Positions 2,188 to 22,040 of a stretch of 24,000 nt of DNA are shown here, in pieces. The notes under the pieces are model-generated. The model made no database searches. It had not been told where the DNA came from and saw only the letters and a program-made list of their open reading frames with translations. The DNA is from Leifsonia sp. (GTDB lineage: Bacteria > Actinomycetota > Actinomycetes > Actinomycetales > Microbacteriaceae): assembly GCA_035999915.1 (NCBI GenBank), contig DASYGJ010000358.1, forward strand, positions 6,050-30,049. Direction: 5' to 3'. The position numbers and the translations under genes are program-made. Each line of letters starts with the position of its first letter. Within the stretch, counting starts at the first letter, position 1.

Positions 2188-2217
2188 AGTGTGCCTCTCG
2201 AATCGGGTGATGCAGGT

Positions 2218-2631
2218 CTAGTTGGGGACTTCGTAGACGTCGATGGTCGTGTCGTTCGGGTTGGAGTGGGCCCGTCCGACGAAGACGGACCGGGTGAGCC
2301 AGCTCAGCGTATGGGCGACGGTCCGGAAGCGCGGGGTGGTGAGGAAGTAGTCGTCGGCGTCGCGCACGACGCCGACGTTGACGACGTCGATGACGTCGCC
2401 GTCGGCGGTCCGGATGAGGTAACGCGCCTCCACCTCGAAGGTGCCGTCCGGGCGCACGAGGCACCAGTCGCCGCCGCCGGGGATGATCGCGCCCTCGATG
2501 TCGCCGGTCACGGGCCCGCCCGTGATCGGGATGTACTCCAGGGTCTCGTCGCCCCGGTGCTCGAGCGGGATGCCCGGATCGACCAGAGCGGTGATCCGGA
2601 ACCTGTAGCGCAGAGCGGGAGCAGCATCCAT
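2218..2631 (-). CDS. DUF3237 family protein (UPF0311-like beta-barrel)
   Basis: Sequence ...LEYIPITGGPVTGDIEGAIIPGGGDWCLVRPDGTFEVEARYLIRTADGDVIDVVNVGV... matches the DUF3237 pattern (GG.f.G..l.G.v.pgGaDw...r.DG...darY.l.t.DG). I prefer the ATG at 2631 (MDAAPALRYR), preceded by GGAGG (rc of 2636-2640), over the track start at 2730. Confidence 0.8.
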   Translation of the reverse strand: MDAAPALRYRFRITALVDPGIPLEHRGDETLEYIPITGGPVTGDIEGAIIPGGGDWCLVRPDGTFEVEARYLIRTADGDVIDVVNVGVVRDADDYFLTTPRFRTVAHTLSWLTRSVFVGRAHSNPNDTTIDVYEVPN

Positions 2632-2897
2632 CGGGGCCTCCGAGTGATCAAGGTTCGCGCTTCGTCGCGCGGTTGCCTCAGTATGGCCATAGTGGATGAG
2701 ATAGTCAATAGCATTCACTAAATGATCCATGTCGTGCTATACAGGTCCAGAGGACATGGCGTCGCGGAGTGAGGGTGGATCATGGGTGATCACGGTCGAG
2801 GGCCGGGGATGGTCGGCGTTTACGCGTCGTACTGGCCCGGCCGGCTCTTGGCGATCGAAGTCTCAACATCTGTCGGCGAGAATTCGGGACTTCGAGC

Positions 2898-3578
2898 ATG
2901 ACTCAGGCCGCCCATACCCGACGCAAGCGTGGATCGCTCAGCCGCGATGAGATCGTCGCGGCGGCCCTCCGGCTGATGGACGCGGAAGGCGAATCCGCCC
3001 TCACCTTTGCACGGCTTGGGGAGGAGCTGCAGTCGTCGCCTACCGCGGTGTACCGCCACTTCACAAGTCGCAACGAGCTCTTGGAGGCGCTTGGGGATCA
3101 CTTGGATGGGATCTCGCTCGAAGGCTACGAACCGACCGACGACTGGCGCGCCGATCTGACGGACCTGGCTTGGCGGGCGTGGAGAACGGCCGCTGCCCAT
3201 CCCGCAGCGGCGGCGTTGACGTTCACTCTGGTGGCGAACGGAACCAATGAGCTCCGCGCGGTCGAGTGGATACTGCGTGCTTTGTCGGTCGTGGGCCTGC
3301 GCGGCCGTAGGGCGGTGATCCAGTATCAGGCGTACGCGACGATGGTGCTCGGTGCGGCCGCTTCCTACGGTGCGCGGCTGGCGAACTCGGGCTCGCGCGA
3401 AGTGGCGGACGGCTGGATCCAGGTCTACGCGCCGACCGACCCGTCTCTCTACCCGCACGCGGAGGCCGCCAAGGCCGACCTGGCCTTCATCAACTACGAA
3501 GAGGTCTTCGAGGTTCAGCTTGAGATGTACCTGACGGCGCTGGACCTCGCGGTCGCACAGAGTGACGGAGTCGCTTGA
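2898..3578 (+). CDS. TetR family transcriptional regulator
   Basis: N-terminal HTH LSRDEIVAAALRLMDAEGESALTFARLGEELQSSPTAVYRHFTSRNELLEAL is a classic TetR_N pattern. 226 aa; divergent from the DUF3237 operon across a 266-bp spacer. Confidence 0.9.
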   Translation: MTQAAHTRRKRGSLSRDEIVAAALRLMDAEGESALTFARLGEELQSSPTAVYRHFTSRNELLEALGDHLDGISLEGYEPTDDWRADLTDLAWRAWRTAAAHPAAAALTFTLVANGTNELRAVEWILRALSVVGLRGRRAVIQYQAYATMVLGAAASYGARLANSGSREVADGWIQVYAPTDPSLYPHAEAAKADLAFINYEEVFEVQLEMYLTALDLAVAQSDGVA

Positions 3579-4404: not shown

Positions 4405-5343
4405 TCACAGGCTTTTCAGTACACGGGTGCGGTCTTTGCGCCACCGACTCGCGAACGGAGAGTCGAGCGCCATCGAGTCATAGGCATGAGGGGCTCCGGG
4501 ATGGACGTGCAGCTCGGTCTGCACACCCGCCTGCAGGAGCCGGCAGGCGTAGCGGATATCTTCATCTCTGAAGAGGTCGACGGCCCCGACTTCGATATAC
4601 GCGGGCGCGAGACCGGCGAAGTTGTCGAGCCGGGCAGGAGCGGCGGATGCGGGGACGCCGGCAGTCGCGATCGCATCCCCGAGCAGGGCGTGCCAGCCGG
4701 TGTAGTTGTCTTCGTGCGTCCACGTGACGAGCCGGCCGAGGGACGGATCCTCCTGGGTGGTGCGGTCGTCGAGCATGGGGAAGATGAGGATCTGCTGCGC
4801 GATTTCGATGCCCTCGTCGCGCGCGAGTATGGCTGTCGCGGCGGCCACACCCCCGCCCGCGGAGTCCCCCATCACGCCCACGCGTCCCGCGTCGACACCG
4901 AGTTCCTCGGCGTGTTCGCGAAGCCATCGCAACGCCGCTGTGGCGTCGCGCGCGGGCGTGTCGCCCGTCGCCTCGGGTGCCAGGCGATAGTCGAGGGACA
5001 GCATCGGCACCCCCGACCAATGCACATGTTGGGCGACGTAGGGATCATAGATCTTCACTGAGCCAGCGATGAGTCCGCCGCCGTGAAGAAAGAGGGCTGC
5101 AGAGCCAGGACTCGACCCCCGTTTCGTGTACCAGCGGGCGAGGAGGGTCGCCCCGTCATCGGCCGAGACGGTGATATCGCGACGTGAGACGTCGGGGATC
5201 GGCGAGATCCGGCGTGACTCTTCGAGGAGTATCGGATCGAGCGCGGCCCGAAGACCGAGCGCGTCACCTCGCGCGATCTCCGGGAGATGGGCGGCGGCGT
5301 CGTCCAGGGCCTGCGTGAAGATCTGATCGGGTCTGATGGGCAT
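4405..5343 (-). CDS. Alpha/beta hydrolase, hormone-sensitive-lipase-type esterase/deacetylase
   Basis: 312 aa with the oxyanion motif FLHGGGLIAGS, nucleophile elbow GDSAGGG and C-terminal HVHPGAPHAYD. SD AAGGAGGG (rc of 5348-5355). Confidence 0.9.
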   Translation of the reverse strand: MPIRPDQIFTQALDDAAAHLPEIARGDALGLRAALDPILLEESRRISPIPDVSRRDITVSADDGATLLARWYTKRGSSPGSAALFLHGGGLIAGSVKIYDPYVAQHVHWSGVPMLSLDYRLAPEATGDTPARDATAALRWLREHAEELGVDAGRVGVMGDSAGGGVAAATAILARDEGIEIAQQILIFPMLDDRTTQEDPSLGRLVTWTHEDNYTGWHALLGDAIATAGVPASAAPARLDNFAGLAPAYIEVGAVDLFRDEDIRYACRLLQAGVQTELHVHPGAPHAYDSMALDSPFASRWRKDRTRVLKSL

Positions 5344-5437: not shown

Positions 5438-5770
5438 GCCTGAACGTGGCGGCGGCATCTGTACAGCTTCGATCGCATTCTGCCCGCAGCCCTGGTGGTT
5501 CGGCCTCAGGCGTCAGGTCTTGCATGACGTGTGCTAAGCCCTCAAGAGGAAGCCGATGCACGACGGAGGAGGGATTGTCCTCGCCGCGCGTCACGGATCG
5601 TGTGGCGGCTGTGAATGATTGGTGAGCACGTCTTCAGGTCCACAAGAAAAAACATGCACCGTTTGTTAGTCGATGGCTACGCAGAATCTCACGGTCACGC
5701 TTCGGTGCCTCGCCCGGGCTCTTGAGAGTTGAGTTCGACGGCTGCACCGTGAGTTGGTCGCGCCACAGGA

Positions 5771-7222
5771 TCACTCGGCGTCGGCGTCGGCGTCGGCGTC
5801 GGCTTCGGCGTCGGCGTCGAGGAGGAACCGGTCGATGCCGCGCGAGCGGAGGTAGGCGAAGTAGTAGGCGTAACCGGCGACGACGATCCCGCCTGCGATG
5901 CTCAGGCTTACCCATTGGGTCGGATCGAGCACGCCTAGGATGAGCACACTTGCGATGACCACGAGAGCGACGAGGGCTGGGAGCGGCCACCAGGGCATGC
6001 GGTACAGGTCGGCCGGTTGGTCGTCTCGTCTCTGGCGTCGCACGGCGATGGCTGCCAGAGCGATGAAGGCGAATCCGGTGACGACGGTGGAGCCTGTGGC
6101 GTTGACGAGGACGGTCATCGGAATCAGGCAGGCGAGTCCGGAGAGGACCCCCATGACAATGGTCGCAACCCGCGGCATGTGGGCTACACCCGATACACGG
6201 GCGAGGGGCTTGGCGAGGAAGTCGGGAAGGGCATGATCACGAGCGGCGACGAAGAGAAGGCGCCCGGCCTGGAGGCTGAGGGCGATGTTGGCGTTGAGGA
6301 TGGCCAGCGCCATCGAGAGCAGCACGAAGACGGAGACAGCGTGGCCCGCGCGTTGCTCGAGGAACGCCTCCACCGGCAGGTTCGCGCCGACCAGACCCTT
6401 GATGGAGTTGGCGCCGAGCATCACGAAGATCAGCGGAACGGTCTCGACGATAACTGTGATGATGGCGGAGTAGATCACGGCTCTGGCTACGTTGCGACGG
6501 GGACGGATCGTCTCTTCCGCGAAGTACACCGCGCCGCCGTATCCGTACTGTGCGAAGACGCCCTGCGTGACCACCAGGACCAGCCCTGCTACGCCGATGG
6601 GCGCGAGAGCTCCGCTGGAGTTCAGAGCCTCCGGATTCAGAAGATCGGTGAGGGGGCGTTCGATGTGCACTGCGCCCAGGAACGTCAGCAATGCGATGGC
6701 GGCCATCTCCACGAAAAGGAAGGTGCCCGTCACCCAGGCGTTTGTCCGGATGTTCAGGCACGAGACGAACGTGGCGATCAGCGTGACCACCAACGCGGTG
6801 GCGATGGGGTCAAGTCCGGCGAACGTCACACCGAGGTAGTCCGACACGCCGAGGGCGAAGATCGCTTGCGACAGCGGCAGGCCGATGAGTCCGAGTACGA
6901 ACACGGCGGATCCGGACGCGGGACCTAGCGTGCGGCTCACCAGCGCATAGTCCCCGCCCGCGATCGGATGGCGCGAGCCCAGCTCTGCGTAGCACAACGC
7001 GACGAGAAGGCTGATGACGCCGGCGATCAGGAATCCCCAGAAGACTCCGGTGCCGTAGGAAGACAGTGCCGCCCCTCCGAGGATGAAGACGCTGGCCGCG
7101 GGAGAGATCGACGACAATGTGAGGAGGACGTTGCCGCCGACCCCGAGTGTGCGAGCGAGCTTCTGGACGGGCCCGACCGCCTCGGCTGCTAAGGCAGTTT
7201 GAGGGTATTGGTATTCGGACAT
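5771..7222 (-). CDS. APC-superfamily amino acid/polyamine permease with an acidic (Asp-Ala)n C-terminal tail
   Basis: 483 aa, about 12 hydrophobic segments, APC hallmark ...LCYAELGSRHPIAGGDYALVSRTLG.... It is the last gene of the 14060->5771 operon. SD AAGGAAG upstream of ATG 7222. Confidence 0.9.
   Translation of the reverse strand: MSEYQYPQTALAAEAVGPVQKLARTLGVGGNVLLTLSSISPAASVFILGGAALSSYGTGVFWGFLIAGVISLLVALCYAELGSRHPIAGGDYALVSRTLGPASGSAVFVLGLIGLPLSQAIFALGVSDYLGVTFAGLDPIATALVVTLIATFVSCLNIRTNAWVTGTFLFVEMAAIALLTFLGAVHIERPLTDLLNPEALNSSGALAPIGVAGLVLVVTQGVFAQYGYGGAVYFAEETIRPRRNVARAVIYSAIITVIVETVPLIFVMLGANSIKGLVGANLPVEAFLEQRAGHAVSVFVLLSMALAILNANIALSLQAGRLLFVAARDHALPDFLAKPLARVSGVAHMPRVATIVMGVLSGLACLIPMTVLVNATGSTVVTGFAFIALAAIAVRRQRRDDQPADLYRMPWWPLPALVALVVIASVLILGVLDPTQWVSLSIAGGIVVAGYAYYFAYLRSRGIDRFLLDADAEADADADADAE
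5777..5818. repeat. Tandem hexanucleotide repeat (GGCGTC)x7, one unit GGCTTC
   Basis: Read directly: seven consecutive 6-nt units at 5777-5818. They encode the permease tail DADAEADADADADAE on the minus strand and generate poly-Arg shadow ORFs in other frames. Confidence 0.9.
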
Positions 7223-7255
7223 GACGCAACCTGCTTCCTTGAAGGTGGTGAGGGG

Positions 7256-7273
7256 GAGTTGGATGAGTTGGAT
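7256..7273. repeat. Tandem 9-bp repeat (GAGTTGGAT)x2 in the SDR-permease intercistronic spacer
   Basis: Read directly at 7256-7264 and 7265-7273, between the SDR stop (7291) and the permease start (7222). Confidence 0.8.
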
Positions 7274-7290
7274 GTGGAGAACGCTGCGGC

Positions 7291-8070
7291 TCAGAGGCCT
7301 CGTTCCTCATTGATGGAGTTTGCGCCGTCAACAACGATGAGTTGCCCGGTAATGTACGAGGCCTCGTTGCTCGCCAGAAAGGCGATGGCTGCGGCGACCT
7401 CGCCGGGGGTGCCTGATCGGCCGACCGGCGTCGCGCGGCCCATGTCGAGCTCGTGCTCGCTGGAGGACGAGGTTGCGATCCACCCGGGTGCCACGGCGTT
7501 GACCGTTATGCCGGAGGTCGCCACATCGAGCGCAGAGGCACGCGTGAGGCCCAACATCCCGGCCTTGGCAGCGTGGTAGGCGACGTCCCCGGTGTAGGCC
7601 ATCACGGGACCGGAGATGGATGCGACGTTGACGATGCGACCATATCCGTCGACGCGCATTCCAGGGAGGACGGCACGTGTCATGCGCAGCGCAGTGGTGA
7701 GGTTGCGCTCAATCGACAGGCGCCACTGTTCGACAGATATTTCGTCGATGGACGCAGGGCTGTCCGGACTCGACAGGGATGTCATCCCGGCGTTGTTGAT
7801 CAGGACGGTCGGAGCTCCGAAGGTCTGGGTGGCGGTCGTGACGAGGTTGTCCACGTCACGTTGCACGGTGAGGTCGGCGACGATACCGGATGCTTCGATT
7901 CCCGCTTCGCGCAGCTCTGCCGCTCGCTCGTGGATACGGCCGGTGGTGGAGGTGACGATGACCCGCATTCCGTTTCGGCCGAGGTGGCGCGCAGCAGCCA
8001 TGCCGATGCCTTCAGCGCTCCCTGCGCCGGTGACGATGGCTACGTCGTTGGATTGTTCTGACATGATCAT
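7291..8070 (-). CDS. SDR family oxidoreductase (FabG-like)
   Basis: Cofactor motif VAIVTGAGSAEGIG and catalytic YHAAK (YxxxK) with upstream NVASISG. The second ATG at 8064 has better spacing from AAGAAGGA (rc of 8071-8078) and may be the true start. Confidence 0.9.
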   Translation of the reverse strand: MIMSEQSNDVAIVTGAGSAEGIGMAAARHLGRNGMRVIVTSTTGRIHERAAELREAGIEASGIVADLTVQRDVDNLVTTATQTFGAPTVLINNAGMTSLSSPDSPASIDEISVEQWRLSIERNLTTALRMTRAVLPGMRVDGYGRIVNVASISGPVMAYTGDVAYHAAKAGMLGLTRASALDVATSGITVNAVAPGWIATSSSSEHELDMGRATPVGRSGTPGEVAAAIAFLASNEASYITGQLIVVDGANSINEERGL

Positions 8071-8076
8071 TCCTTC

Positions 8077-9105
8077 TTATCCGAGGGCGGGCTGCTGCTG
8101 GGTGATGCAGTGGATGCCGCCGCCACGGTCAAAAAGCGGTCGGGCGTCGACGGTGACGACTCGATGCCCGGGGTAGGCGGCGCCTAGGATCTCCCGCGCA
8201 CGCGCATCGGCGATGTCGTCACCGAAGCCGCAGGCCACGACTCCGTCGTTGGTGACGAGGTGATTGATGTAGCTCCAGTCGACCCAGCCGTGCGCGTCAC
8301 GCAGTCTCGATGGTGCCGGTACGCCGGTGATGGTGACCGATCGATCTCGTGCGGCGAAGGCCGCTTCCAGCTCGCCGCGAATCGTGTGCGAGACCTGGTA
8401 GTCGGGGTGGGAGGGGTCCGTCTGCTCGTGTACGAGGACATGGTCCGGTGACGCGAGCGTGGCGACGATGTCGACGTGTCCGTTGGTACCGAGCTCGTCG
8501 TAGTCCCGAGTGAGTCCTTGTGAAAGCCAGATCGCGTCCGTTGCGCCAATGGTGCGAGCCATCTCTCTCTCCACGCGTGCGCGATCCGCGTAGGGATTTC
8601 GTCGAGGGTCGAGCTGCACGGTTTCAGTCAGTAATACCGTTCCGGCGCCGTCGACGTGCAGGCCGCCGCCCTCAGCTACCAGCAGGGAGTCGATGATCTC
8701 AGAGCCAACATGTTCGGCGACGAGGCGGGCGATCGCAGCAGACTTCTGCCATTCAGCCCAGTCCGGTGCCCCCCAACCGTTGAAGATCCAGTCCACTGCG
8801 CCGAGGACGTCCGGCCGGTCGCTGTCCACGACGAACGTGGGACCCATGTCGCGCATCCAGAACTCGTCGACGGGCGCTTCGATGATCTCGATCGCCGAGT
8901 CCAGCATCCGCCGGGCGCGCGCGATCTCGGTCGGATCGACCACCATGCTCACCGGCTCGAACTGGAGGACGGCGTGAGCGACGTCGGTCCAGGCGCGATA
9001 GCCTTCCTCCCGGGTCTCGGCTCCTTCTCCCAGCGTGAACCCTTCACGGGGGAACGCCATCCAGGTGCGTTCGTGTCGGGTGGTTTCGGCGGGCATGCGC
9101 CACAT
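8077..9105 (-). CDS. Agmatine deiminase family protein (Porphyromonas-type peptidyl-arginine deiminase fold, PF04371-like)
   Basis: N-terminal ...ERTWMAFPREG... and C-terminal ...FDRGGGIHCITQQQP, the family's catalytic-Cys signature. 342 aa; alternative start at 9096. Confidence 0.9.
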   Translation of the reverse strand: MWRMPAETTRHERTWMAFPREGFTLGEGAETREEGYRAWTDVAHAVLQFEPVSMVVDPTEIARARRMLDSAIEIIEAPVDEFWMRDMGPTFVVDSDRPDVLGAVDWIFNGWGAPDWAEWQKSAAIARLVAEHVGSEIIDSLLVAEGGGLHVDGAGTVLLTETVQLDPRRNPYADRARVEREMARTIGATDAIWLSQGLTRDYDELGTNGHVDIVATLASPDHVLVHEQTDPSHPDYQVSHTIRGELEAAFAARDRSVTITGVPAPSRLRDAHGWVDWSYINHLVTNDGVVACGFGDDIADARAREILGAAYPGHRVVTVDARPLFDRGGGIHCITQQQPALG

Positions 9106-9120
9106 GGTGTCTTCTTTCTC

Positions 9121-9135
9121 AGTGGAGTGGAGTGG
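9121..9135. repeat. Tandem pentanucleotide (AGTGG)x3 in an intercistronic spacer
   Basis: Read directly, between the stop of the fusion gene (9136) and the start of the deiminase gene (9105). Confidence 0.8.
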
Positions 9136-12000
9136 TCAGAATCCGGTGCTGAGCACTCGATCGAGCGCGTCGACGAAGGCGTCGGCCGAAGCGATGGTGA
9201 CGACGAGGGGCGGCTTGATCTTGAGGACGTTCTGGTGGTCGCCGGTCGGTTGCATGATCACACCGAGCTCGAGCAGCCGCGCGCAGATGGCAGCGGTCTC
9301 GGCCGTGGCGGGTTCGAGCGTTTCGCGGTCGCGCACGAATTCCAGCCCGAGGTACAGGCCCGATCCGTGCACGGTTCCGACGATTTCGTGAACCTGCCCG
9401 AGCTGTTCGAGGCGTCGCTTCAGGTGCGCTCCGACGATGCGGGCGTTCTCTTGAAGACCCTCCTCCTGGATGACGTCGAGCACGGCCATGCCGATCACCG
9501 CGGAGACAGGTGAGCCGCCGGTCGAGGAGAAGAAGTATCCCTGCGAGCGGTAGCGGTCTGCGATCTCCCGACGCGTGATCACCGCACCGAGAGGGTGACC
9601 TCCGCCGATGGACTTGGCCACGGCGACGATGTCGGGCACCACACGTTGCTGTTCGAAGCCCCAGAACCAGTCGCCGAGCCTTCCGTAACCGACCTGCACC
9701 TCGTCGGCAATGGTTAGACCGCCGTGACGCCGGATCGCAGCGTAGACGGCAGAGAGGTAGTGGTCGGGTAGGGCCACGCCGCCGGCGTTTCCGAAGTAGG
9801 TCTCGCAGATCATGCCGGCCGGGGGACGTCCGGACGCCGCGAGGTCGTCGATGACGGCGACGGCTTCGGGCGCGTAGCGGTCGGAGTCAGGGCCGCGGTG
9901 GCGGCCGCGATACGGGTTCGCCGCGTCGACGGTGTGCACCCACCCGGGTCGGGTCGCCAGGGCGTTCGGGTTGTCGGCGACTGACGTCGACACAGCGTCG
10001 CTGGCGTAGGTCCATCCGTGGTAGGCCTCCCTCATCGCGACGATGTCGGGCCGACCTGTCGCGGCCATGGCGAGGCGGATTGCGAGGTCGGTCGCCTCGG
10101 ACCCGGAGTTGACGAAGAACACCGTGTTGAGTTCGTCGGGCAGGGTGGCCGCGATGCGCTCGGCATAGTCGGCGATCGCGCGGTAGTGGAAGCGCGAGTT
10201 GGTGTTCAGGAGGTGCATCTGGCGTGCGGCGGCGTCGACGACGTGCGGGTGCGCGTGACCGACGGAGGCAACGTTGTTGACCATGTCGAGGTAGACGCGA
10301 CCGTTCACGTCGATGAGGTATTCGCGCCAGCCGCGTTCTATGCGTGGCGGAGCGTCGTAGTAGTGCTCCTGGACTTCGGCGAGTACCCCGTGTCTGCGGG
10401 CCAGGACATCGTCGTCGACCGGCGCCGCGGCAGGTACGCCGATGGCTGCGCCCGGGTCCCCGGCGACCGTACGCCAGGCAGCCGCGAGTACCGGTGTGGT
10501 TCGAGCGGGCGGGGTGACGCCCGTCCGGGAACGCTGAACGACCAGTCGTGTCCGTGCGGGGAGCTCGTCCGAGACACCTGTGGCGCCAGAGATCGTCACT
10601 TGCTCATCGCCCGACGCCCACGATAGAACCCCATCGGTCTCCGTGACGGAGCCCGCGGACGCGTGCAGCCTGGTCGGTTCGGCCAGCCACAGGATCGCGC
10701 CGGTCGGGATCGTCTCCGTTGTGGACGGCAGCGGCTCGGTCGTCCCGGTCAGTCGGGCACGCCACGCTGGGACCGTGACGATCGCTGCGCCATCGTCGAG
10801 CGCAGCGAGAGCTGCAGCATCCAAGGTCGTCGCGTCGAGCCACGCCCCGGCGTCGTTGAGCGGTGATTCCGGGGATGCGTCGAGTTCCACGTGCGGGGAG
10901 AGCCGGGGCAGCAGGGCGTCGATCGCCCAGGGCCGCTGGGTCTCGACGGTTCGTCCCAGTGCGGTGCGGATCGCGGCGGTGATCACGGGCAGCGGGATCG
11001 ATACCGCTTGCTCGAGGATCCGGAGCTCGCGGTCGAGCGCGACGGTGGCGTAGGAATTGCCCTCGTCGAGACGCACTTGGGCGCGGCCGCTGAGAACCAG
11101 AACTGCCCCTCGCAGGACGACGAGGGGCCACAACGCCGTGATCTCCGCATCCGTGAGTTTCCGGACCCGATCGAATTCCTCGATGGCGGGCAGCGTGCTC
11201 TCAGGCCTCGCCCCGCTGTGATGCAGGATGGACGACACGGTGACCGCGAGCTCTCCCACACGCCACGAAGAGCAGACGTCGCCGAAGTCGATCACCGCGT
11301 CGGGCACAGCCGTTCCGGCCGCCCGCAGGACGTTGTCATCGGTGACGTCGAAATGCCCGAACTGAGTGGGGAGCTCGTCCTGCACGGGTCCCAGCGCAGC
11401 TCGGGCGGCGTCGACGGCGTGCAACACCGTCGCCCGTACCTCCGGGTCCGGTTCGCCGGGCAGCAGTGTGTCGACCACGCGCTCTGCGTGACGCAGATCC
11501 CACTGAAGGACGCGTGCGCCGGCCGGGTGGGAGAAATCGGCGAGTCCGAGGCTGATCGCGGCCGCCAGAGAGCCCATGCCCCTGACCGTGGCGGGGGAGA
11601 GGTATTCGGAGCCCATGAGTGTCGTGCCGGCGATGTTCTCGATGACCCGCGCATGCAGGTGGCCTTCGGAAGAACGCCACCAGGCGGACATCGCCCCGCG
11701 GGGACCCTCGACGAGACGGGGAATCCGCAGCTGGGGGTTTGCGTCGGCGACATGCGCAGCCGCGGCATCCTGCATCTCGATCTCGCTGCCGCTGAAGGCG
11801 GGGTTGCTCAGCTTGAGCACGCCCAACGGGCTGTGCGAGCCGGCCGGAAAGACGCGGAAGTTCTGATCTTGTTGACTGCCCAGCGGGTGAACATCGACCG
11901 CGACGCCGAACTCCGTGGCGAACAGCGTTGTCACCTCGTCGGCGGAGAGGGTGGGTGTGGGCAGATCCACGTGTGCGAAGTAGTCGAAGAATTCAGACAT
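9136..12000 (-). CDS. Fusion protein: APH/hydroxylysine-kinase-like phosphotransferase domain, ~200-aa central region, and class III PLP enzyme of the phospho-lyase (ETNPPL/PHYKPL-like) type
   Basis: 954 aa from ATG 12000 (MSEFFDYF). The track start at 12123 would overlap the upstream amidase.
- Kinase part: LGSQQDQNFRV, catalytic loop HFDVTDDN (aa 216-223), IDFGD (237-241).
- PLP part: NSGSEA (631-636), DEVQVGYGR (766-), PLP-Lys in VAVAKSIGGGHP (K796), and NVLKIKPP (924-931). This last motif is the one I recall as characteristic of AGXT2L-type phospho-lyases. Confidence 0.9.
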   Translation of the reverse strand: MSEFFDYFAHVDLPTPTLSADEVTTLFATEFGVAVDVHPLGSQQDQNFRVFPAGSHSPLGVLKLSNPAFSGSEIEMQDAAAAHVADANPQLRIPRLVEGPRGAMSAWWRSSEGHLHARVIENIAGTTLMGSEYLSPATVRGMGSLAAAISLGLADFSHPAGARVLQWDLRHAERVVDTLLPGEPDPEVRATVLHAVDAARAALGPVQDELPTQFGHFDVTDDNVLRAAGTAVPDAVIDFGDVCSSWRVGELAVTVSSILHHSGARPESTLPAIEEFDRVRKLTDAEITALWPLVVLRGAVLVLSGRAQVRLDEGNSYATVALDRELRILEQAVSIPLPVITAAIRTALGRTVETQRPWAIDALLPRLSPHVELDASPESPLNDAGAWLDATTLDAAALAALDDGAAIVTVPAWRARLTGTTEPLPSTTETIPTGAILWLAEPTRLHASAGSVTETDGVLSWASGDEQVTISGATGVSDELPARTRLVVQRSRTGVTPPARTTPVLAAAWRTVAGDPGAAIGVPAAAPVDDDVLARRHGVLAEVQEHYYDAPPRIERGWREYLIDVNGRVYLDMVNNVASVGHAHPHVVDAAARQMHLLNTNSRFHYRAIADYAERIAATLPDELNTVFFVNSGSEATDLAIRLAMAATGRPDIVAMREAYHGWTYASDAVSTSVADNPNALATRPGWVHTVDAANPYRGRHRGPDSDRYAPEAVAVIDDLAASGRPPAGMICETYFGNAGGVALPDHYLSAVYAAIRRHGGLTIADEVQVGYGRLGDWFWGFEQQRVVPDIVAVAKSIGGGHPLGAVITRREIADRYRSQGYFFSSTGGSPVSAVIGMAVLDVIQEEGLQENARIVGAHLKRRLEQLGQVHEIVGTVHGSGLYLGLEFVRDRETLEPATAETAAICARLLELGVIMQPTGDHQNVLKIKPPLVVTIASADAFVDALDRVLSTGF

Positions 12001-12023
12001 GGGGGTTCCCGGGTGATGGTGTG

Positions 12024-14060
12024 TCAGAGAGGAGAAAGGGGAGTGGTGGCGACGGCCCCGACAGTACCGCCAGCGGCATCCCGTGCGATGAGGACAACGA
12101 GCGGGCCGAAGGGAGCCATCCACGTGCTGACCGGCTCGAGGTAACTGCCCAGCGGCACCTCGGTGGAACCGGTGAGTCGGTTTCCGGTGAGCGTTGCGTC
12201 AACGCGAACGCCGTCGACGTATGCGCCGATGTCGATGGCCGGGCCGCCGGCGATCGTCGCAGAGAACTCCACGACGGTACGTGCACCCTGGCGCTCAACC
12301 GCGACGACGTCGATGTTGATGCGGAGGCCGGTGTCCGCCGGCGGCCGCGACTCCGCGAACACAGCCTCGTCGTCGAGGGTGGGAGTGCGCGTCGGCGTGG
12401 TGCGCCGGTTGCGCAGAGCGGCGATCGCCAAGCCCAGTCGGATCAGGCGAGTGTCGCTATAGGCTCGACTGGCCATCGTGAGTCCCACCGGGATCCCGGT
12501 GTCCTCCATGGTGCCCATCGGAACGACGACCGTGGGGATCCCGAGGTGACGCGGCACGAGGTTCCCGTTCGAAACCCAGACGCCGTTGCGCCACGCTCTC
12601 TCTGCCGAGGCGGGGTTGACATCCGCGTCCGCCGGTCCGACGTCGGACTGCGTGGGGAAGATGACGGCATCGAAACCGCGGTCGTCGAGCCATTTCTCGA
12701 AGTCTTCCCGGCGGGTGCGTTCCAGTCCGCGCAGCCCGTCTTCGAGGCTGCTGATGTTCCGCCAGTCGGGCTGCCATTCCCGGGCCCGCTCGACGTAGTC
12801 GCCGATGTCGTAGGAGATGTCGTAGTGCCGGAGGCCATACCGGTCGGGGAGCGCATCCGGCGGTTGCGGGAAGATTTTCGCGGCATCAGCGTCGGCGATG
12901 CTGTTCAGAGTCGGATCCCCGTTCTGGTGCAGGAAGGCATCCATGGCCCACACTGCGAGGTCGCCGACCTCGTCGTCGAGGAACTGACGGCTAACGAACC
13001 CGCGATCGAGGAAGTCGCGGTCTCCGGGGTGCAGCTTCTCGTAGCGGTCCACGACCGGGAAATCGGCCTCGACCACCTGGGCGCCCGCGGCCTCGAGGTC
13101 AGCGCGAAGGTCTCCCCAGAGGCGCAGGATGCTGTCACGGGTGACGATCGGGGACGCGTTATCCGGGTCCTGGTTGATGTAGATGCGGGGCACGGCAAGG
13201 CGAAGACCCTCGAGCGGCAGCGGTTCCAAGTCGGCGAATGACTCGGGGCGGACCTCCGACGGGCGCGGAAGTTGGATCCACGTTTGCATGCGCCAGAAGT
13301 CGCCGTTGCTGTCCGGATCGTCCGCGACGACCGCGTCCAGGACGTGGAGGAGATCCTTGATTGTGCGGGTGTGTGGGACGACGACGTCCATCGTCGGCAC
13401 GAGCGGCCAGTTCCCTCGCACTGAGATCACTCCGCGTGACGGGGTGTAGGCGACCAGCGCGTTGTGCGAGGCGGGAGCGCGACCGGACGACCAGGTCTCT
13501 TCGCCGAGTCCGAAGGCGGCGAAGCTCGCCGCGGTCGCCGACCCGGATCCATTGGAGGAGCCGGAGCCGAACGCCGAGGTGAGATAGTCACCGTTGTACG
13601 GCGACTCGGCTCGACCATAGAGACCCCGCTGCATGCCGCCGGCCGCCATCGGGGGCATGTTCGTCAGTCCCAGAAGGATCGCGCCCGCCTCCCGCAGTCG
13701 TGCCACCGCGAACGCGTCGTCGCCTGCGATCAGATCGGCGAACGCCGGCGACCCGGCGGCCACGGTCAGACCGGCGACGCGATAGCTGTCCTTTGCCGTG
13801 AAGGGGATGCCGTCGAGAGGACCGCGGCACTCGCCTCGGGCGCGGCGGACGTCAGAGTCACGAGCCTCGTCGAAGACCGAGGCGTTCAACACGGGCACTG
13901 CGTTGAGACGGATGCCGCTCCGGTCGTACGCCGCGATCCGATTCAGATACCGAGCAACCAGCTCCACGCTGGTCACCTCTCCCGCGTCGAGCGCGGCGCG
14001 CAGGCGGTCAATGTCGGCTTCGACGACACTGGGGGCTTCCGTAGACATGGCCGTAAACAT
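12024..14060 (-). CDS. Amidase (amidase-signature family), long form with a C-terminal ~130-aa extension
   Basis: 678 aa with PFTAKDSY (catalytic Lys) and GSGSSNGSGSATAAS...GRAPASHNALVAYTPSRG (variant of the GGSSGG signature). A beta-rich tail follows ...AIAALRNRR. The alternative start ATG 14048 (MSTEAPS) fits a leaderless transcript. Confidence 0.9.
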   Translation of the reverse strand: MFTAMSTEAPSVVEADIDRLRAALDAGEVTSVELVARYLNRIAAYDRSGIRLNAVPVLNASVFDEARDSDVRRARGECRGPLDGIPFTAKDSYRVAGLTVAAGSPAFADLIAGDDAFAVARLREAGAILLGLTNMPPMAAGGMQRGLYGRAESPYNGDYLTSAFGSGSSNGSGSATAASFAAFGLGEETWSSGRAPASHNALVAYTPSRGVISVRGNWPLVPTMDVVVPHTRTIKDLLHVLDAVVADDPDSNGDFWRMQTWIQLPRPSEVRPESFADLEPLPLEGLRLAVPRIYINQDPDNASPIVTRDSILRLWGDLRADLEAAGAQVVEADFPVVDRYEKLHPGDRDFLDRGFVSRQFLDDEVGDLAVWAMDAFLHQNGDPTLNSIADADAAKIFPQPPDALPDRYGLRHYDISYDIGDYVERAREWQPDWRNISSLEDGLRGLERTRREDFEKWLDDRGFDAVIFPTQSDVGPADADVNPASAERAWRNGVWVSNGNLVPRHLGIPTVVVPMGTMEDTGIPVGLTMASRAYSDTRLIRLGLAIAALRNRRTTPTRTPTLDDEAVFAESRPPADTGLRINIDVVAVERQGARTVVEFSATIAGGPAIDIGAYVDGVRVDATLTGNRLTGSTEVPLGSYLEPVSTWMAPFGPLVVLIARDAAGGTVGAVATTPLSPL

Positions 14061-14073
14061 ACACTGATTGTTT
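14055..14073. promoter_or_regulatory. AT-rich divergent start region with dyad AAACA-N9-TGTTT and two overlapping TANNNT -10-like hexamers
   Basis: Only 14 nt (26 nt if the amidase starts at 14048) separate the amidase and TetR start codons, and neither has an SD. TACACT (14060-14065, + strand) ends 9 nt before ATG 14075. TATGTT (14061-14056, - strand) ends 7 nt before ATG 14048. The 5-bp inverted arms at 14055-14059 and 14069-14073 span both hexamers. Confidence 0.3.
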
Positions 14074-14074
14074 T

Positions 14075-14785
14075 ATGGGCACCACAACTATTTCGAGACT
14101 CGCCGGCACGGACGGCTGGGACGGGTGCGTAAGCTCAGGAGGGACCTTTGGGAGGTACGTCATCGGTAGACCGTCCACGCCGATACTCAGCCGGGATCTC
14201 ATCGCGCGCACGGCGCTCGCGCTCGTCGATCGTCATGGGCCGGAAGGCGCGAGCATCCGCCGTGTCGCTGCGCGACTCGGGGTGAACCCCGCTTCGCTGT
14301 ACAACCACGTGCCGAATCGAGCCGCGATGGTCGAAGACGTGCGAGCGCTGGTCTCGGCGCGCATCGACTCGAGGCCATTGCGTGAACTCCCGTGGGAAGA
14401 TGCTCTCCGAGCCTGGGCCAGGTCGTACCGGCGAGCGTTCGCGAGGCACGCTCGGGCTGTGCCCCTGTTGATGACGGAGCGGATCTCGGCGCCCGTGCTG
14501 CTCGCCGAGTACGAAGACTTCGTGGTGGCTGCCGAGGCGGCCGGGTGGCCGCGTCGCGATGTCTTACCCCTGCTGACAGCGTTCGAGTCCTTCATCCTCG
14601 GCAGCGTCATGGACATGTCTGGTCCGACGGTCGTCTTCGATCCGACGGGGCAGGAGGACTCGTTCCCGCGATTTGCCGCGGCATTCGAGACGCTTGGCGA
14701 CGAGGATCCCGCCGACCCCGTCGCCACACGCGCCTTCGAACTGGGTCTCGACATGCTGATTGCCTCCGCCCGCCCTCGCGGTTGA
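14075..14785 (+). CDS. TetR family transcriptional regulator
   Basis: HTH ...LIARTALALVDRHGPEGASIRRVAARLGVNPASLYNHVPNRAAMVEDV... There is no in-frame alternative start downstream before the HTH. Divergent from the amidase operon. Confidence 0.85.
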   Translation: MGTTTISRLAGTDGWDGCVSSGGTFGRYVIGRPSTPILSRDLIARTALALVDRHGPEGASIRRVAARLGVNPASLYNHVPNRAAMVEDVRALVSARIDSRPLRELPWEDALRAWARSYRRAFARHARAVPLLMTERISAPVLLAEYEDFVVAAEAAGWPRRDVLPLLTAFESFILGSVMDMSGPTVVFDPTGQEDSFPRFAAAFETLGDEDPADPVATRAFELGLDMLIASARPRG

Positions 14786-14801
14786 CCAGGAAGGTCGAGA
14801 A

Positions 14802-15620
14802 GTGGACTCATCCGATATCCAATCTCCGCTGGCCACCGAAGCAGGTCGGCGGCTGATCTGCCTGACGCTCGCATGGGATCAGATCCCTGAGTCGATCTCG
14901 ATGGAGGGCGGTAGCGACGAGATCCTGCGCGAGCCCGTCTGTGCGATCCTCGTCGACACCGCGATCGGCTGGGTGCTGCTGGACACCGGCACGGACGCGC
15001 GGAGGTTTCGCGGTCCGAACCCCGACAGAGACCTCTACGCGCCGGCAGGCCTGCCCGAGTTCCTCACGGATGGCGACCCTCTCATCGATGCACTCGCCCA
15101 GCATGGGCTCGCACCGAGCGATCTCGTGCTCGCCGCGATCTCGCACCTGCACTTCGACCACTCCGGAGGCCTGCGGCACCTGGCTGAGGCGGGGGTCGAG
15201 GTCTGCGTCCAACGGCGAGAGCTCGACTTCGCCATGAACGCAGCGACGCGACACGATGCGTACCTCCGGGAGGACTACCAGGACCCGGCCATCAGGTGGC
15301 GCATCCTCGACGGCGACGAGGTCATCGCTCCGGGAATTGACGCCGTCTCGACACCAGGGCATACGCCGGGGCATATGTCGTACCGAGTGAGGATGGCCGA
15401 GTCGGGAACGTGGATTTTCGCTATGGATGCGATTGACTTGCAGAGGGGGATTGACCTCGACCGAGTGGTCGGGACACACGCTGTGCCAGCGGACGCGCCC
15501 CTCGTACGACACTCGCACAATCGTCTGGTCGCCCTTGCACGCGACGAGGGTGCTCGCCTGGTGGCCGGGCACTGCCCCGACACCTGGCCGGCATTGGCTG
15601 CCGAGGGGGTCATCGCCTGA
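14802..15620 (+). CDS. MBL-fold metallo-hydrolase, N-acyl-homoserine-lactonase-like (AiiA/AhlD type)
   Basis: ISHLHFDHSGG is nearly identical to the AiiA zinc motif HLHFDHAGG. Later STPGHTPGH and AGHCP. I prefer GTG 14802, preceded by AGGAAGG (14788-14794), over the track's TTG 14760, which overlaps the TetR 3' end. The start lies 16 nt after the TetR stop. Confidence 0.85.
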   Translation: MDSSDIQSPLATEAGRRLICLTLAWDQIPESISMEGGSDEILREPVCAILVDTAIGWVLLDTGTDARRFRGPNPDRDLYAPAGLPEFLTDGDPLIDALAQHGLAPSDLVLAAISHLHFDHSGGLRHLAEAGVEVCVQRRELDFAMNAATRHDAYLREDYQDPAIRWRILDGDEVIAPGIDAVSTPGHTPGHMSYRVRMAESGTWIFAMDAIDLQRGIDLDRVVGTHAVPADAPLVRHSHNRLVALARDEGARLVAGHCPDTWPALAAEGVIA

Positions 15621-15635
15621 CCCCGAAACGGGGTC
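15619..15635 (+). terminator. Putative stem-loop terminator GACCCCG-aaa-CGGGGTC
   Basis: Perfect 7-bp GC-rich stem overlapping the lactonase stop codon (TGA 15618-15620). There is no U-tract, as is common in high-GC actinobacteria. Confidence 0.45.
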
Positions 15636-15880
15636 GGCTCTCAATCCTCGCGCCGGGACGACGCCTGCGCTCGTATGCGATCAAGCCGACGGTGATGGTC
15701 CACGACTCTAATGCATAGACACGCAAGACGCGCGGACCGGCTGTGCGGGTGGGGGATGAGCGATCGAACCGAAGCGGCACCGCCCCGGTGGTCGCCCCGA
15801 CCGCGAGCAGGACGATGGCGCCAAGACGGCGGATCCATGAGGATTACATCAGCCAACTAGGCGCTTCTGGGCCCACCGCT

Positions 15881-15904
15881 AGAGTTCGAATCCCACGCCC
15901 TCCG
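15881..15904 (+). repeat. tRNA 3'-end-like fragment, left copy of a 24-nt direct repeat (att-like)
   Basis: AGAGTTCGAATCCCACGCCCTCCG. GTTCGAATC + CCCAC + GCCCTCC + G has the layout G53/T-loop, T-stem 3' strand, acceptor 3' strand, discriminator. Upstream there is no matching T-stem 5' strand (GTGGG expected, TAGAG found) and no D or anticodon arms, so it is a fragment rather than a gene. It matches 23710-23733 at 23 of 24 positions. Confidence 0.6.
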
Positions 15905-16171
15905 GCGGTACAAAATACCTGATCAGAGCAAATTTACCGTTGGCCTAAATGCCGATTTTGCCCCCAATCCGACGACATCCTCGTGAATTCACCTGGGGCC
16001 AAGCCTTGTGGGATAGCTGCAATTGGCACCCAAGTGGTGGGCAACTCTGCAATTCCTGGATACCACGGTGTCCCTGGCCGGATGGAAGTCACGCACCGGT
16101 CGACCGAGCGATTCGCATGGTCCAGAGGGTGCAGAATCGAATGGTCGCACCAGGCTGAATGGAGTCAATGA

Positions 16172-17140
16172 ATGGATGACGTCCGCGTCCCTGGGCTGGA
16201 ATCGGTCGCACCCGGTACATGGTCAGTGGGCATGCCCATGCCAGGTGGCCACATCCCATTCAGTGCCCTGTATCTCATCGAAGATGAGACGCGGGGTTTG
16301 CATGTGATCGATCCGGGCTGGGGGTCTGATGAGAACTGGCAGGTCCTCGGCGCGGCCCTCGCCCAGCTCGGTCGAAACGCAGGCGATGTGCGCACCATCA
16401 CGGTCACGCATCTTCATCAGGACCACCTGGGGATGGCCGACAGGTTGCGCGCCGCATCCGGCGCACCCGTCGTCATGCATCGTTTCGAGCAGCAGGCGAA
16501 GGATGGGATGGCCGGCGGAGTACCGGCCGAGGCGGCCGCGCACGAGATCGAAGGATGGGGTGTGCCGGGCGAGCGCCGGGGCGAACTCGACCTGCGGGCG
16601 ATCTCTTCGGCGGCGCCGCCGTCGGCGGATGCGGACCTGCTGGTCGACGACGGCGACCTGCTGCCGATCCCGGGACGCGAACTCGAAGTGCTGCTCACAC
16701 CAGGGCACACGCCCGGCCATATCTGTCTGCGCGATGCTCAGCACAGGCTGATCTTCACCGGCGACCACGTGCTGCCGACGATCTACTCCGGGCTCGGGCT
16801 CGGCGGTCGCACCGAAACCAACGCGATGGCCGACTACCTGGGGTCGCTCGCCCGGGTTGCGCTGTTCGACGATCACGAGGTGTGCCCAGGCCATGGCTAC
16901 CGGTTCTTCGGCCTGGCAGAGAGATGTCGTCAGATCTCCGAGCACCACCTCAGGCGCACGCGTGAGGTTCTCGCAGCGCTCGACGAGCGTCCGGATGCAT
17001 CGGTGTGGGGCATCGCGAGCGGCCTCACCTGGACGGCGGGTTGGGAGAAGCTGTCCGGGTTTTATCTGCTCTCGGCGCTCAGCCAGACGGCGATGCACCT
17101 GGATTTCGTCCGCTCGGGCGGGGCGCGGGCGTTCGTCTAG
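16172..17140 (+). CDS. MBL-fold metallo-hydrolase
   Basis: VTHLHQDHLG (HxHxDH), TPGHTPGH, CPGHGY; 322 aa. SD GGAG (16161-16164) lies 7 nt before the ATG. Confidence 0.85.
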   Translation: MDDVRVPGLESVAPGTWSVGMPMPGGHIPFSALYLIEDETRGLHVIDPGWGSDENWQVLGAALAQLGRNAGDVRTITVTHLHQDHLGMADRLRAASGAPVVMHRFEQQAKDGMAGGVPAEAAAHEIEGWGVPGERRGELDLRAISSAAPPSADADLLVDDGDLLPIPGRELEVLLTPGHTPGHICLRDAQHRLIFTGDHVLPTIYSGLGLGGRTETNAMADYLGSLARVALFDDHEVCPGHGYRFFGLAERCRQISEHHLRRTREVLAALDERPDASVWGIASGLTWTAGWEKLSGFYLLSALSQTAMHLDFVRSGGARAFV

Positions 17141-17535
17141 CCTGCGGTGACCGCCCAGACCGGTGCTGTCTCGTCGCGATCTCCGGTTCCGGTCGGCACG
17201 AAGGTGACGTGGACAGCGGCTCCGGTCAGGTCCGCGTCGGGGTCCGCGTCGAGCTCGCCCCACCACCAGGGGCCTTCGGCGAGCTGTACGACACCGACGA
17301 CGACCCGGTTCGGGGCGCCATCGCTGCCTCGGCCGTGGACGACCGACCAGCTGACGATCTCGCCGGTACCGGCGGCGGCCACATACTCGTAGCGCTCGGA
17401 CCAGAGCGCGACGTCGGTCTTCGAGTCGAGGAACTCACCGGTCGACGTGTCGCGGACGATGAGGAACTTTCCTTCCGCGGTGCCGTCGAAGAAGGCTGCG
17501 CTTGCGGCGTCGCGCCGCACGGGGAACAGTGGCAT
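17137..17535 (-). CDS. DUF35-type OB-fold protein lacking the zinc-ribbon cysteines
   Basis: Real start is ATG 17535 (MPLFPVRRDAASAAFFDG...), preceded by GGAGA. The 312-aa track ORF is an artefactual N-terminal extension through the upstream gene. The pattern FFDG..EG.F......G....GEIVSWSVVH...VVVGVVQLAEG...L...GAAVHVTF fits DUF35. The 132-aa protein contains no Cys at all. Confidence 0.8.
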   Translation of the reverse strand: MPLFPVRRDAASAAFFDGTAEGKFLIVRDTSTGEFLDSKTDVALWSERYEYVAAAGTGEIVSWSVVHGRGSDGAPNRVVVGVVQLAEGPWWWGELDADPDADLTGAAVHVTFVPTGTGDRDETAPVWAVTAG

Positions 17536-17543
17536 TGCGTCTC

Positions 17544-18704: not shown

Positions 18705-18706
18705 TG

Positions 18707-19534: not shown

Positions 19535-19568
19535 CGGGAGGATGCCTTTCTCGTGTCTCTGATGATTC

Positions 19569-21983: not shown

Positions 21984-22040
21984 GGGGTACTCCCTCGTAC
22001 CGGTGGTGTTTGATGTCAGGATTTCACCGGTGTGATCGAA

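Follow-up and report, generated by a model that had tools for sequence, protein, structure and literature searches.

An actinobacterial operon joins agmatine deiminase and AguY-family amidase genes to a kinase/phospho-lyase fusion: a candidate catabolic route for guanidino amino alcohols

The 24,000-nucleotide (nt) stretch of a Leifsonia sp. genome analysed here (the window: GenBank assembly GCA_035999915.1, contig DASYGJ010000358.1, positions 6,050 to 30,049) carries a five-gene operon in which the genes for an amidase of the AguY family and a homologue of the agmatine deiminase AguA are separated by a gene coding for a small-molecule kinase fused to a pyridoxal phosphate (PLP) domain of phospho-lyase type. 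The best explanation of these genes is that the operon is catabolic and repressed by a divergently encoded TetR-family regulator, TetR1, and that its conserved core consists of aguY (in a long form), the kinase/phospho-lyase fusion gene and aguA. The locus joins two known kinds of system, the AguA-AguY route described in 2025 and a kinase/phospho-lyase pair of the HYKK-PHYKPL/ETNPPL type; the deiminase and amidase half has been published already, and what appears to be new is its recurrent pairing with the fusion. We favour, at a probability of roughly 0.4, a reading in which AguA, the long-form AguY and the fusion would act in series on a hydroxylated agmatine-type compound.

All five genes lie on the minus strand, in the order amidase, fusion, PF04371-family deiminase, SDR oxidoreductase and APC-superfamily permease, with intergenic gaps of 23, 30, 6 and 68 nt (Table 1). 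A sequence-only reading of this DNA had described just such a co-directional run with gaps of 6-68 nt, and that layout holds: every open reading frame (ORF) lies where it was placed, and Pfam confirms the family of each product. Purine-rich, Shine-Dalgarno-like runs precede the starts of the last three genes, and a scan of the window found no terminator-like hairpin within any of the gaps separating the five genes. Terminator-like sites in the window are not above chance (6, against 3.6 +/- 1.6 expected; the two on the minus strand are inside coding sequence), and the promoter scan of the window was uninformative, with one promoter-like site against 1.0 expected. G+C content of the window is about 66%. 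By identity of the fusion protein its closest relatives are all Microbacteriaceae, namely Humibacter (82%), Microbacterium (78%) and Rathayibacter (77%), and an identical fusion is also present on a metagenomic contig of 5.8 kb.

How far is this gene set conserved? A scan of one genome per species gave 80 loci with fusion homologues (54-78% identity; individual loci are referred to below by L numbers), all from Actinomycetota: Microbacteriaceae, Mycobacteriaceae, Rhodococcus, Kineococcus/Kineosporia and Quadrisphaera. Co-occurrence was counted by tblastn with the window proteins, up to 10 kb from the fusion, at the 73 loci whose length is 15 kb or more; the counts rest on tblastn and not on gene clustering, whose ORF calls missed some genes. 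Amidase and deiminase homologues are both present at 26 loci, the amidase only at six, the deiminase only at two and neither at 39, a co-occurrence near the fusion with Fisher p 6e-12, without correction for shared ancestry. The co-occurrence of amidase, fusion and deiminase, which the sequence-only reading had proposed as a check, is thus real, with all three at 26 of 73 species loci, and the trio recurs in Microbacteriaceae and Mycobacteriaceae. The five genes as a set are not conserved: the SDR is found with the trio at two of the 73 loci and the permease at none (0/73). The conserved unit is TetR, long-form AguY, fusion and AguA, not the five genes. In Microbacteriaceae the order is as in the window, TetR being divergent from amidase-fusion-deiminase; a 4-bp overlap joins the amidase gene to the fusion gene at one locus (L004). 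Mycobacteria differ in having the deiminase gene past TetR and on the opposite strand. Two look-ups from the amidase side gave one locus with TetR-amidase-fusion-deiminase (L093) and one with TetR and amidase alone, near a relaxase gene (L094).

The amidase exceeds the cut-off of NCBIfam PRK06565 (838.8 bits; cut-off 575), and its closest solved structure is Tse8 (PDB 6TE4; 679 bits, E 6e-203, residues 11-562), with the amidase signature (AS) motif region conserved; the next solved relatives are far behind (peptide amidase 141 bits, allophanate hydrolase 101 bits). Tse8 itself (6TE4/6YHV) is a toxin that Pseudomonas aeruginosa secretes through a type VI system; it has an immunity gene, and its own gene does not lie beside aguA, whereas the window homologue is a predicted cytoplasmic operon enzyme with an added C-terminal domain. 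Tse8-like AS amidases adjoining aguA have been identified as a non-canonical N-carbamoylputrescine amidohydrolase, named AguY, with kcat/Km values of 1.8e5 M-1 s-1 for the enzyme of Shewanella oneidensis (568 aa) and 6.4e5 M-1 s-1 for that of Microterricola gilva (584 aa), a member of the Microbacteriaceae (Li, Baniasadi, Phillips, Michael 2025, Biochem J 482:999, PMC12283126). The same work records pairs of aguA and aguY from Actinomycetota and from Proteobacteria of the alpha, beta and gamma classes, proposes putrescine synthesis or agmatine catabolism as roles for AguA-AguY, mentions a second AguY paralogue in M. gilva, and makes no mention of an aminotransferase or kinase (PMC12283126). 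The description of the pathway as new therefore stands in part: the pairing of deiminase and AS amidase has been published, and with it the AguA-AguY half of the cluster, whereas the combination of deiminase and AS amidase with kinase and phospho-lyase was not found in the literature searched.

The window system shares with the published one the PF04371 deiminase and Tse8-like AS amidase (PRK06565) families, the phylum and even the Microbacteriaceae, and the chemistry to be expected. It differs in that the amidase and aguA, while in one operon, have the 2.9-kb fusion gene standing between them, in having its own TetR and operator, and in the form of the amidase. The validated AguYs are 568-584 aa long with a single AS body, an architecture not matched by the 678-aa window amidase, whose C-terminal ~115 aa (about 12024-12380) extend past the end of Tse8 as an extra domain, with no match in Pfam. 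Fusion-adjacent amidases are 664-678 aa throughout, and the best 120 relatives of the window amidase in the database, labelled just 'amidase', span 635-711 aa, all but one being at least 668 aa. Operons with aguA and aguY and no fusion look different: that of Agromyces (L089; NCS1 permease-aguA-aguY) codes for an AguY of 577 aa, to which the window amidase is 61% identical, and that of Microbacterium rhizomatis (IclR divergent from aguA-aguY) for one of 572 aa. Such short-form AguYs are about 566-634 aa long, which by length would include the validated M. gilva enzyme, and are 81-98% identical to the Agromyces short form (in Agromyces, Arthrobacter, Streptomyces, Leifsonia and Humibacter); identity this high across Agromyces, Arthrobacter and Streptomyces suggests horizontal transfer. 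On these comparisons the long-form AguYs make up a separate subfamily that travels with the fusion, and the short forms serve plain aguA-aguY pairs. The second M. gilva paralogue was not among the best 120 matches of the long-form search, nor among those of the short-form search.

The deiminase, whose C-terminus reads ...RGGGIHCITQQQPALG, matches PF04371 at full length (324 bits, profile positions 1-321 of 321). It stays under the cut-offs of TIGR03380 (242.7 bits; 381.8) and NF010070 (237.1 bits; 483), and its best PDB relatives are plant and bacterial agmatine deiminases. In alignment with AtAIH, the motifs GTNGHVD and, at the C-terminus, GGGIHCITQQQP fall on its catalytic His, Asp and Cys. 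In MtAIH, Asp220 and Asp89 hold the terminal amine of agmatine, and Trp91 and Trp125 line the channel (PMC6447857); the window protein keeps equivalents of both Trp residues and has Glu in place of Asp89. A Gly precedes TNGH, after a D-[DE]-[LFM] insertion. We considered whether this Gly-for-Asp replacement and three-residue insertion mark a pocket specific to the trio, and rejected the idea, as the AguA of the plain Agromyces operon has the identical pattern.

The fusion as a whole exceeds the cut-off of NCBIfam PRK06149 (1189.7 bits; cut-off 973). Its PLP domain scores highest against solved phospho-lyases (human ETNPPL 6TOR, 342.7 bits; Arthrobacter phospholyase 5G4I, 251.3 bits), with 191.9 bits for the best non-lyase, dialkylglycine decarboxylase, 152-169 bits for the closest GabT/PuuE entries and 133 bits for the polyamine:pyruvate transaminase 9J4Z. 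The catalytic Lys region VAVAKSIGGGHP aligns with VTMGKPMGNGHP of ETNPPL, and the C-terminal motif NVLKIKPP is identical in the two proteins. We take its position to be that at which class-III transaminases carry a carboxylate-binding Arg, and the motif presumably tells lyases from transaminases; PDB alignments meant to show this contrast of Arg with Lys returned only ETNPPL and racemase-type entries. ETNPPL and a close relative are documented 1,2-elimination enzymes of this subgroup, not transaminases (PMC8154272). On these scores and motifs the PLP domain is of phospho-lyase type and clusters away from GABA and putrescine transaminases, in agreement with the sequence-only reading, which had taken it to be phospho-lyase-like rather than an omega-transaminase (343 and 251 bits against at most 192).

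The N-terminal kinase domain matches PF01636 above the cut-off of 23.2 bits (Table 1). In 14 aligned sequences, with identity down to 49%, K63, H216-x-D218-xxxx-N223 and I-D238-F-G-D241 are invariant, so that the catalytic loop GHFDVTDDN and the metal-binding-type IDFGD are kept in all of them, which argues against a vestigial domain. A sequence search of the PDB with the kinase domain gave no match at E < 0.01, and a profile search gave a marginal match to homoserine kinase 2PPQ (E 0.28). With an AF2 model of moderate quality (predicted local confidence, pLDDT, 69.7; predicted template-modelling score, pTM, 0.76), Foldseek matched YihE (1ZYL, E 3e-6), an aminopropanol kinase (6EF6, E 9e-6, template-modelling scores 0.53/0.63), the ThrB2-type homoserine kinase 2PPQ (E 1.2e-5) and choline/ethanolamine kinases. 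By motifs and modelled fold, the kinase domain thus looks catalytically competent, and a plain transaminase joined to an inactive kinase, the outcome under which the sequence-only reading was to fall, is not what was found. The linker between the two domains (~residues 361-529, ~170 residues) has no Pfam match even at E = 5, and pLDDT is low from residue 358 of the model. NCBIfam PRK06148 covers only the PLP part, at 626 bits and under its cut-off of 1128; tri-functional relatives related to PRK06148 presumably carry a peptidase-like middle domain. Bacterial bi- and tri-functional kinase-lyase fusions of this kind were reportedly the clue that led Veiga-da-Cunha and colleagues, in 2012, to the hydroxylysine kinase and the two phospho-lyases of vertebrates. 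The fusion resembles HYKK/AGPHD1 with PHYKPL/ETNPPL in combining an APH-fold kinase with a class-III PLP domain, ETNPPL being by far its closest solved PLP relative, and in its predicted logic, phosphorylation of a vicinal amino alcohol followed by elimination of phosphate and ammonia. Unlike the vertebrate enzymes, it is embedded between predicted guanidino-removing enzymes.

Three features of the locus had escaped the sequence-only reading: the divergent TetR gene, a conserved operator and a likely sixth gene, coding for an esterase. Close homologues of TetR1 (60-89% identity) adjoin the fusion or the amidase at 39 of the 73 loci. The predicted ATG of TetR1 at 14075 is only 14 bp from the amidase start; because conservation, and with it the alignment to homologues, sets in only at about residue 26-30, the true start probably lies downstream, which would leave an intergenic region of ~60-95 nt as at other loci. 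A palindrome with the consensus AAACMNNCRNNGTRTGTTT has one exact match in the window, where none is expected (0), and at two mismatches four matches (two sites, both strands) against 0.04 expected. Of the 39 loci that have a TetR1 homologue, 31 carry this palindrome, in every case no more than 400 nt from the TetR1 gene, and none of the 34 loci without TetR1 does (0/34), which makes it a candidate TetR1 operator marking a regulon. The palindrome precedes the fusion also where aguA and aguY are both absent (Quadrisphaera, L005/L074) or where aguY is absent (L040), and it precedes operons for an MFS transporter and an Amidohydro_3 enzyme beside or within the cluster (L003, L007, L037, L048). 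The recurrence of the same TetR and palindrome at fusion-only and at Amidohydro_3/transporter loci points to a regulon built around the fusion, in which the feeder hydrolases vary. The proposed TetR control has a likely parallel: the aguBA operon of P. aeruginosa is reportedly repressed by the TetR-family AguR (Nakada and colleagues, 2001). That system likewise sets an agmatine deiminase and an N-carbamoylputrescine hydrolase under a TetR-family repressor, but there the hydrolase is the nitrilase-fold AguB and no kinase or lyase is known to take part.

The remaining operon genes, SDR and permease, are by these comparisons variable add-ons to the conserved core. SDR homologues (54-77% identity) adjoin fusions at nine of the 73 loci, seven of which have no amidase or deiminase, and the window-type permease accompanies the trio only here and in Rathayibacter; in Rathayibacter sp. 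VKM Ac-2805, which is outside the set of 73, both SDR and permease are present, on the opposite strand, convergent and with their own regulator. The SDR has generic FabG-like similarity only. An identification of the SDR as an aminopropanol dehydrogenase was considered and is unsupported, none being among its 60 best PDB matches, which are FabG-like. The permease reaches no NCBIfam equivalog (79 bits against the ethanolamine permease model, cut-off 382); other APC permeases lie directly upstream of fusions at other loci. The esterase gene is co-directional with the operon, 427 nt past the permease and 305 nt downstream of a second, weaker palindrome (Table 1), and in Rhodococcus sp. Leaf278 (L048) the fusion is followed, after 219 nt, by an esterase homologue (51% identity), so the esterase is a possible regulon member.

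At other loci the genes next to the fusion code for APC permeases, a Zn-dependent alcohol dehydrogenase and Amidohydro_3 enzymes. Amidohydro_3 (PF07969) hydrolases, each accompanied by an MFS or APC transporter, lie beside or inside the cluster at ~17 loci by clustering (for example L037 7052-9981, L044 7043-9993, L003 1000-3959, L007 4178-7023 and L051 6018-9261), several of them preceded by the palindrome, and may represent an alternative amine-releasing front end. In Microbacterium, the trio commonly has as neighbours genes for a membrane protein with DUF1206 (21 loci) and for a PAP2 phosphatase (14 loci), sometimes with the SDR (e.g. L003 4768-7150), a possible hint of a phosphorylated extracellular precursor. 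Two loci have a second system: in L012 (6553-9070) and L014 (2439-5047) an APH kinase and a lyase-type class-III enzyme are encoded, unfused, beside an SDR-fusion operon; this class-III enzyme has the motif NVLKIRPP and 37% identity to the PLP domain of the fusion. Each of these loci thus holds two adjoining kinase/lyase systems. Neighbour-joining places the trio-associated fusions in a single large clade, inside which SDR-only and context-free members are nested; the SDR-only fusions of L012 and L014 (75-76% identical) are among those within the trio clade, and this nesting suggests one common amino-alcohol hub. The picture is of a constant hub, predicted to be an amino-alcohol kinase/lyase, around which transporters, dehydrogenases and hydrolases that release amines are exchanged, the commonest front end being AguA with long-form AguY.

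What might the trio do? The serial reading accounts most simply for the linkage, in which the fusion gene has aguY on one side and aguA on the other and the genes are closely spaced (23 and 30 nt in the window, and the overlap at L004). From the family memberships, the conserved linkage and the shared operator we infer each catalytic step, the order of the steps and the kind of substrate, as follows. An agmatine-like guanidino amine, imported in this genome by the APC permease, would be deiminated by AguA to a ureido compound; the long-form AguY would hydrolyse the terminal amide, and the resulting carbamate would lose CO2 to give a primary amine, as published for the conversion of agmatine by way of N-carbamoylputrescine to putrescine (PMC12283126). 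The kinase of the fusion would then phosphorylate a hydroxyl beside this amine, and the PLP domain would eliminate phosphate and ammonia to give an aldehyde, the SDR and possibly the esterase being accessory. Because the PLP enzyme needs a free amine, a hydroxyl next to the guanidino-bearing carbon would be usable only after removal of the guanidino group. As a worked example, 3-hydroxyagmatine would pass through N-carbamoyl-2-hydroxyputrescine, 2-hydroxyputrescine and its 2-phosphate to 4-aminobutanal, ammonia and phosphate. Candidate compounds of this kind are reported from cereals, where amides of hydroxyagmatine and 2-hydroxyputrescine occur (barley, wheat), and many carrier strains are plant isolates, judged by strain name. 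Guanidino removal feeding the kinase/lyase, as put forward in the sequence-only reading, stays the best single reading. The alpha-amino-acid candidates of that reading, hydroxyarginine and hydroxyhomoarginine, are unlikely for an AguA/AguY pair, judging by the known substrates of both families.

In a more specific version, which we hold to be distinctly unlikely, the operon would be a dedicated route for guanidino amino alcohols, with hydroxyagmatine from cereal defence phenolamides as substrate, the long-form AguY as an N-carbamoyl-2-hydroxyputrescine amidohydrolase and the fusion converting 2-hydroxyputrescine to 4-aminobutanal.

Several observations weigh against a serial pathway. No sequence feature of the operon proteins indicates a hydroxylated substrate, and the argument from plant association is one from strain names only. 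The AguA of the trio shares its active-site motifs TNGHVD and GGGIHCITQQQP with the AguA from a plain aguA-aguY operon. Putrescine, the published product of AguY, has no hydroxyl, so that on plain agmatine the fusion would have no role. Nor is the linkage obligate: 39 of the 73 fusion loci have neither amidase nor deiminase, six loci have a long-form AguY with no aguA within 10 kb (L042, L044-L046, L048, L087), and in L094 it is accompanied by TetR alone. The loci are, moreover, related by descent, so the counts overstate the number of independent events.

Some of these points are equally expected if one operon and one regulator hold two independent amine-scavenging modules, AguA and AguY converting imported agmatine to putrescine while fusion, SDR and permease degrade an unrelated amino alcohol such as ethanolamine or 1-amino-2-propanol to an aldehyde, ammonia and phosphate, with no metabolite handed over. 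AguA and AguY are established on agmatine and N-carbamoylputrescine (PMC12283126), the AguA of the trio is indistinguishable by motif from that of a plain pair, SDR and permease move independently of the trio, and the fusions at the 39 loci without aguA and aguY have permeases and dehydrogenases of their own, comparable to the aminopropanol system of Rhodococcus and Mycobacterium. That system, part of the RMM1 microcompartment locus (Axen et al. 2014, PMC4207490), likewise combines an SDR, an APH-type kinase, a class-III PLP enzyme and an amino-acid permease, and the window kinase model matches its kind of kinase (6EF6) at fold level. It differs from the window, where one fused protein combines kinase and PLP enzyme, AguA and AguY are encoded as well, a TetR takes the place of the GntR regulator, the SDR is not detectably close to aminopropanol dehydrogenase, and no shell-protein domain was found in the 17 window gene products scanned. 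What independent modules leave unexplained is the position of the fusion gene in many genera, inserted between aguY and aguA and closely joined to its neighbours or overlapping them; the use of a separate long-form AguY paralogue with the fusion where plain pairs use short forms; and the single TetR and operator over both modules and over fusion-only loci. Independent modules are the main rival of the serial reading, and we hold them to be somewhat less likely than it.

Both of two further alternatives we consider improbable. Putrescine being the published product of AguY (PMC12283126), the PLP domain, which has the class-III fold of SpuC, PatA and GabT, could be an aminotransferase of putrescine (or of 4-aminobutanal/GABA) in a plain route from agmatine to GABA, with the kinase regulatory or vestigial and the SDR handling the aldehyde; sequence is no strict bar to transaminase activity. 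Such a route is hard to reconcile with the scores of the PLP domain (343 and 251 bits to phospho-lyases, against 133 for 9J4Z and 152-169 for GabT/PuuE), with the NVLKIKPP motif common to fusion and ETNPPL, with kinase residues that are invariant in 14 sequences down to 49% identity, and with the description of the solved relative ETNPPL as a 1,2-elimination enzyme and not a transaminase (PMC8154272). The other alternative makes the fusion an ethanolamine hub, yielding acetaldehyde independently of B12, fed with 2-guanidinoethanol (e.g. from the annelid phosphagen lombricine) by AguA and long-form AguY and with N-acyl or ester conjugates by Amidohydro_3 or the esterase. The closest solved PLP relative is indeed an ethanolamine-phosphate phospho-lyase, feeder hydrolases and transporters vary around a constant fusion, PAP2 phosphatase and DUF1206 genes adjoin the trio in many Microbacterium loci, and an adjacent Zn-dependent alcohol dehydrogenase or SDR would suit the handling of acetaldehyde; but AguA has the channel motifs of agmatine-type enzymes, no ethanolamine permease equivalog is found, a supply of guanidinoethanol to these bacteria is unsupported, and the idea is a sub-case of the serial pathway with another substrate. 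The B12-independent ethanolamine route named in the sequence-only reading would not in any case be new: a kinase and phospho-lyase route of this kind for ethanolamine or aminopropanol was reportedly worked out by Jones and Turner in the 1970s. A 2022 review of bacterial polyamine and ethanolamine metabolism leaves phospho-lyases, ethanolamine kinase and phosphoethanolamine unmentioned.

Table 1. Features of the operon and its regulatory region (positions in the window)
Feature	Position	Strand	Remarks
TetR-family regulator TetR1	14075..14785	+	PF00440 + PF02909; divergent from operon
Palindrome AAACAATCAGTGTATGTTT, candidate TetR1 operator	14055..14073	-	overlaps amidase ATG (14060), abuts predicted TetR ATG (14075)
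Long-form AguY-family amidase-signature amidase, 678 aa	12024..14060	-	PF01425
Fusion protein, 954 aa from MSEFF	9136..12000	-	mechanical ORF reaches 12123
Fusion, N-terminal APH-fold small-molecule kinase domain, ~residues 1-360	10921..12000	-	PF01636, 51 bits
Fusion, linker/middle region, ~residues 361-529	10414..10920	-	no recognisable domain
Fusion, C-terminal class-III PLP domain, ETNPPL/PHYKPL phospho-lyase type	9136..10413	-	PF00202, 247 bits
AguA-type agmatine deiminase homologue, 342 aa	8077..9105	-	PF04371, 324 bits, full length
SDR oxidoreductase, 259 aa, accessory gene	7291..8070	-	PF13561/PF00106
APC-superfamily permease, 483 aa, accessory gene	5771..7222	-	PF13520/PF00324
Second, weaker palindrome copy TAACAAACGGTGCATGTTT	5650..5668	-	between permease stop and esterase gene; two mismatches to consensus
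Abhydrolase_3 (hormone-sensitive-lipase-type) esterase	4405..5343	-	PF07859; possible further regulon member

Of the other genes in the window, those at the left end (631-3578) form a cluster in which a TetR gene (2898-3578, plus strand) is divergent from genes for a DUF3237 protein (2218-2730) and an SBP_bac_5 binding protein (631-2187), and which runs off the window. In relatives (L002 979-7122, L003 13950-21973) the cluster continues with a 475-484-aa AS amidase and ABC permease and ATPase genes. It adjoins the trio in three genomes and is co-directional with it in Humibacter; a functional link to the trio is possible. On the other side, TetR1 is followed by two genes for proteins of metallo-beta-lactamase fold (14760-17140), not conserved with the cluster, the first of which (14760-15620) overlaps the end of TetR1 by 26 nt and has a weak likeness to acyl-homoserine lactone lactonases (~102 bits, far under the cut-offs). 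Beyond them lies an unrelated, LysR-controlled operon of coenzyme A (CoA)-dependent enzymes (17137-23082), with genes for a double CoA-transferase family III protein (840 aa), an enoyl-CoA hydratase, a thiolase-like protein and a ChsH2-type OB-fold protein.

If the two halves of the conserved core were independent modules, the locus would be an ordinary nitrogen-scavenging operon of known parts. If its three enzymes act in series, it would define a new route by which bacteria process hydroxylated compounds of the agmatine or putrescine type, or guanidino alcohols of other kinds; the long-form paralogue of the newly discovered AguY, which is widespread, would gain a function, and bacterial fusions resembling hydroxylysine kinase and phospho-lyase would be placed in a physiological context for the first time. 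Should the more specific version with hydroxyagmatine hold, the bacterial kinase-lyase fusions, known since 2012, would have a first physiological substrate, within a new degradation pathway of polyamine type under the control of a conserved TetR and its operator. The conserved TetR and palindrome offer a direct experimental handle on the substrate.

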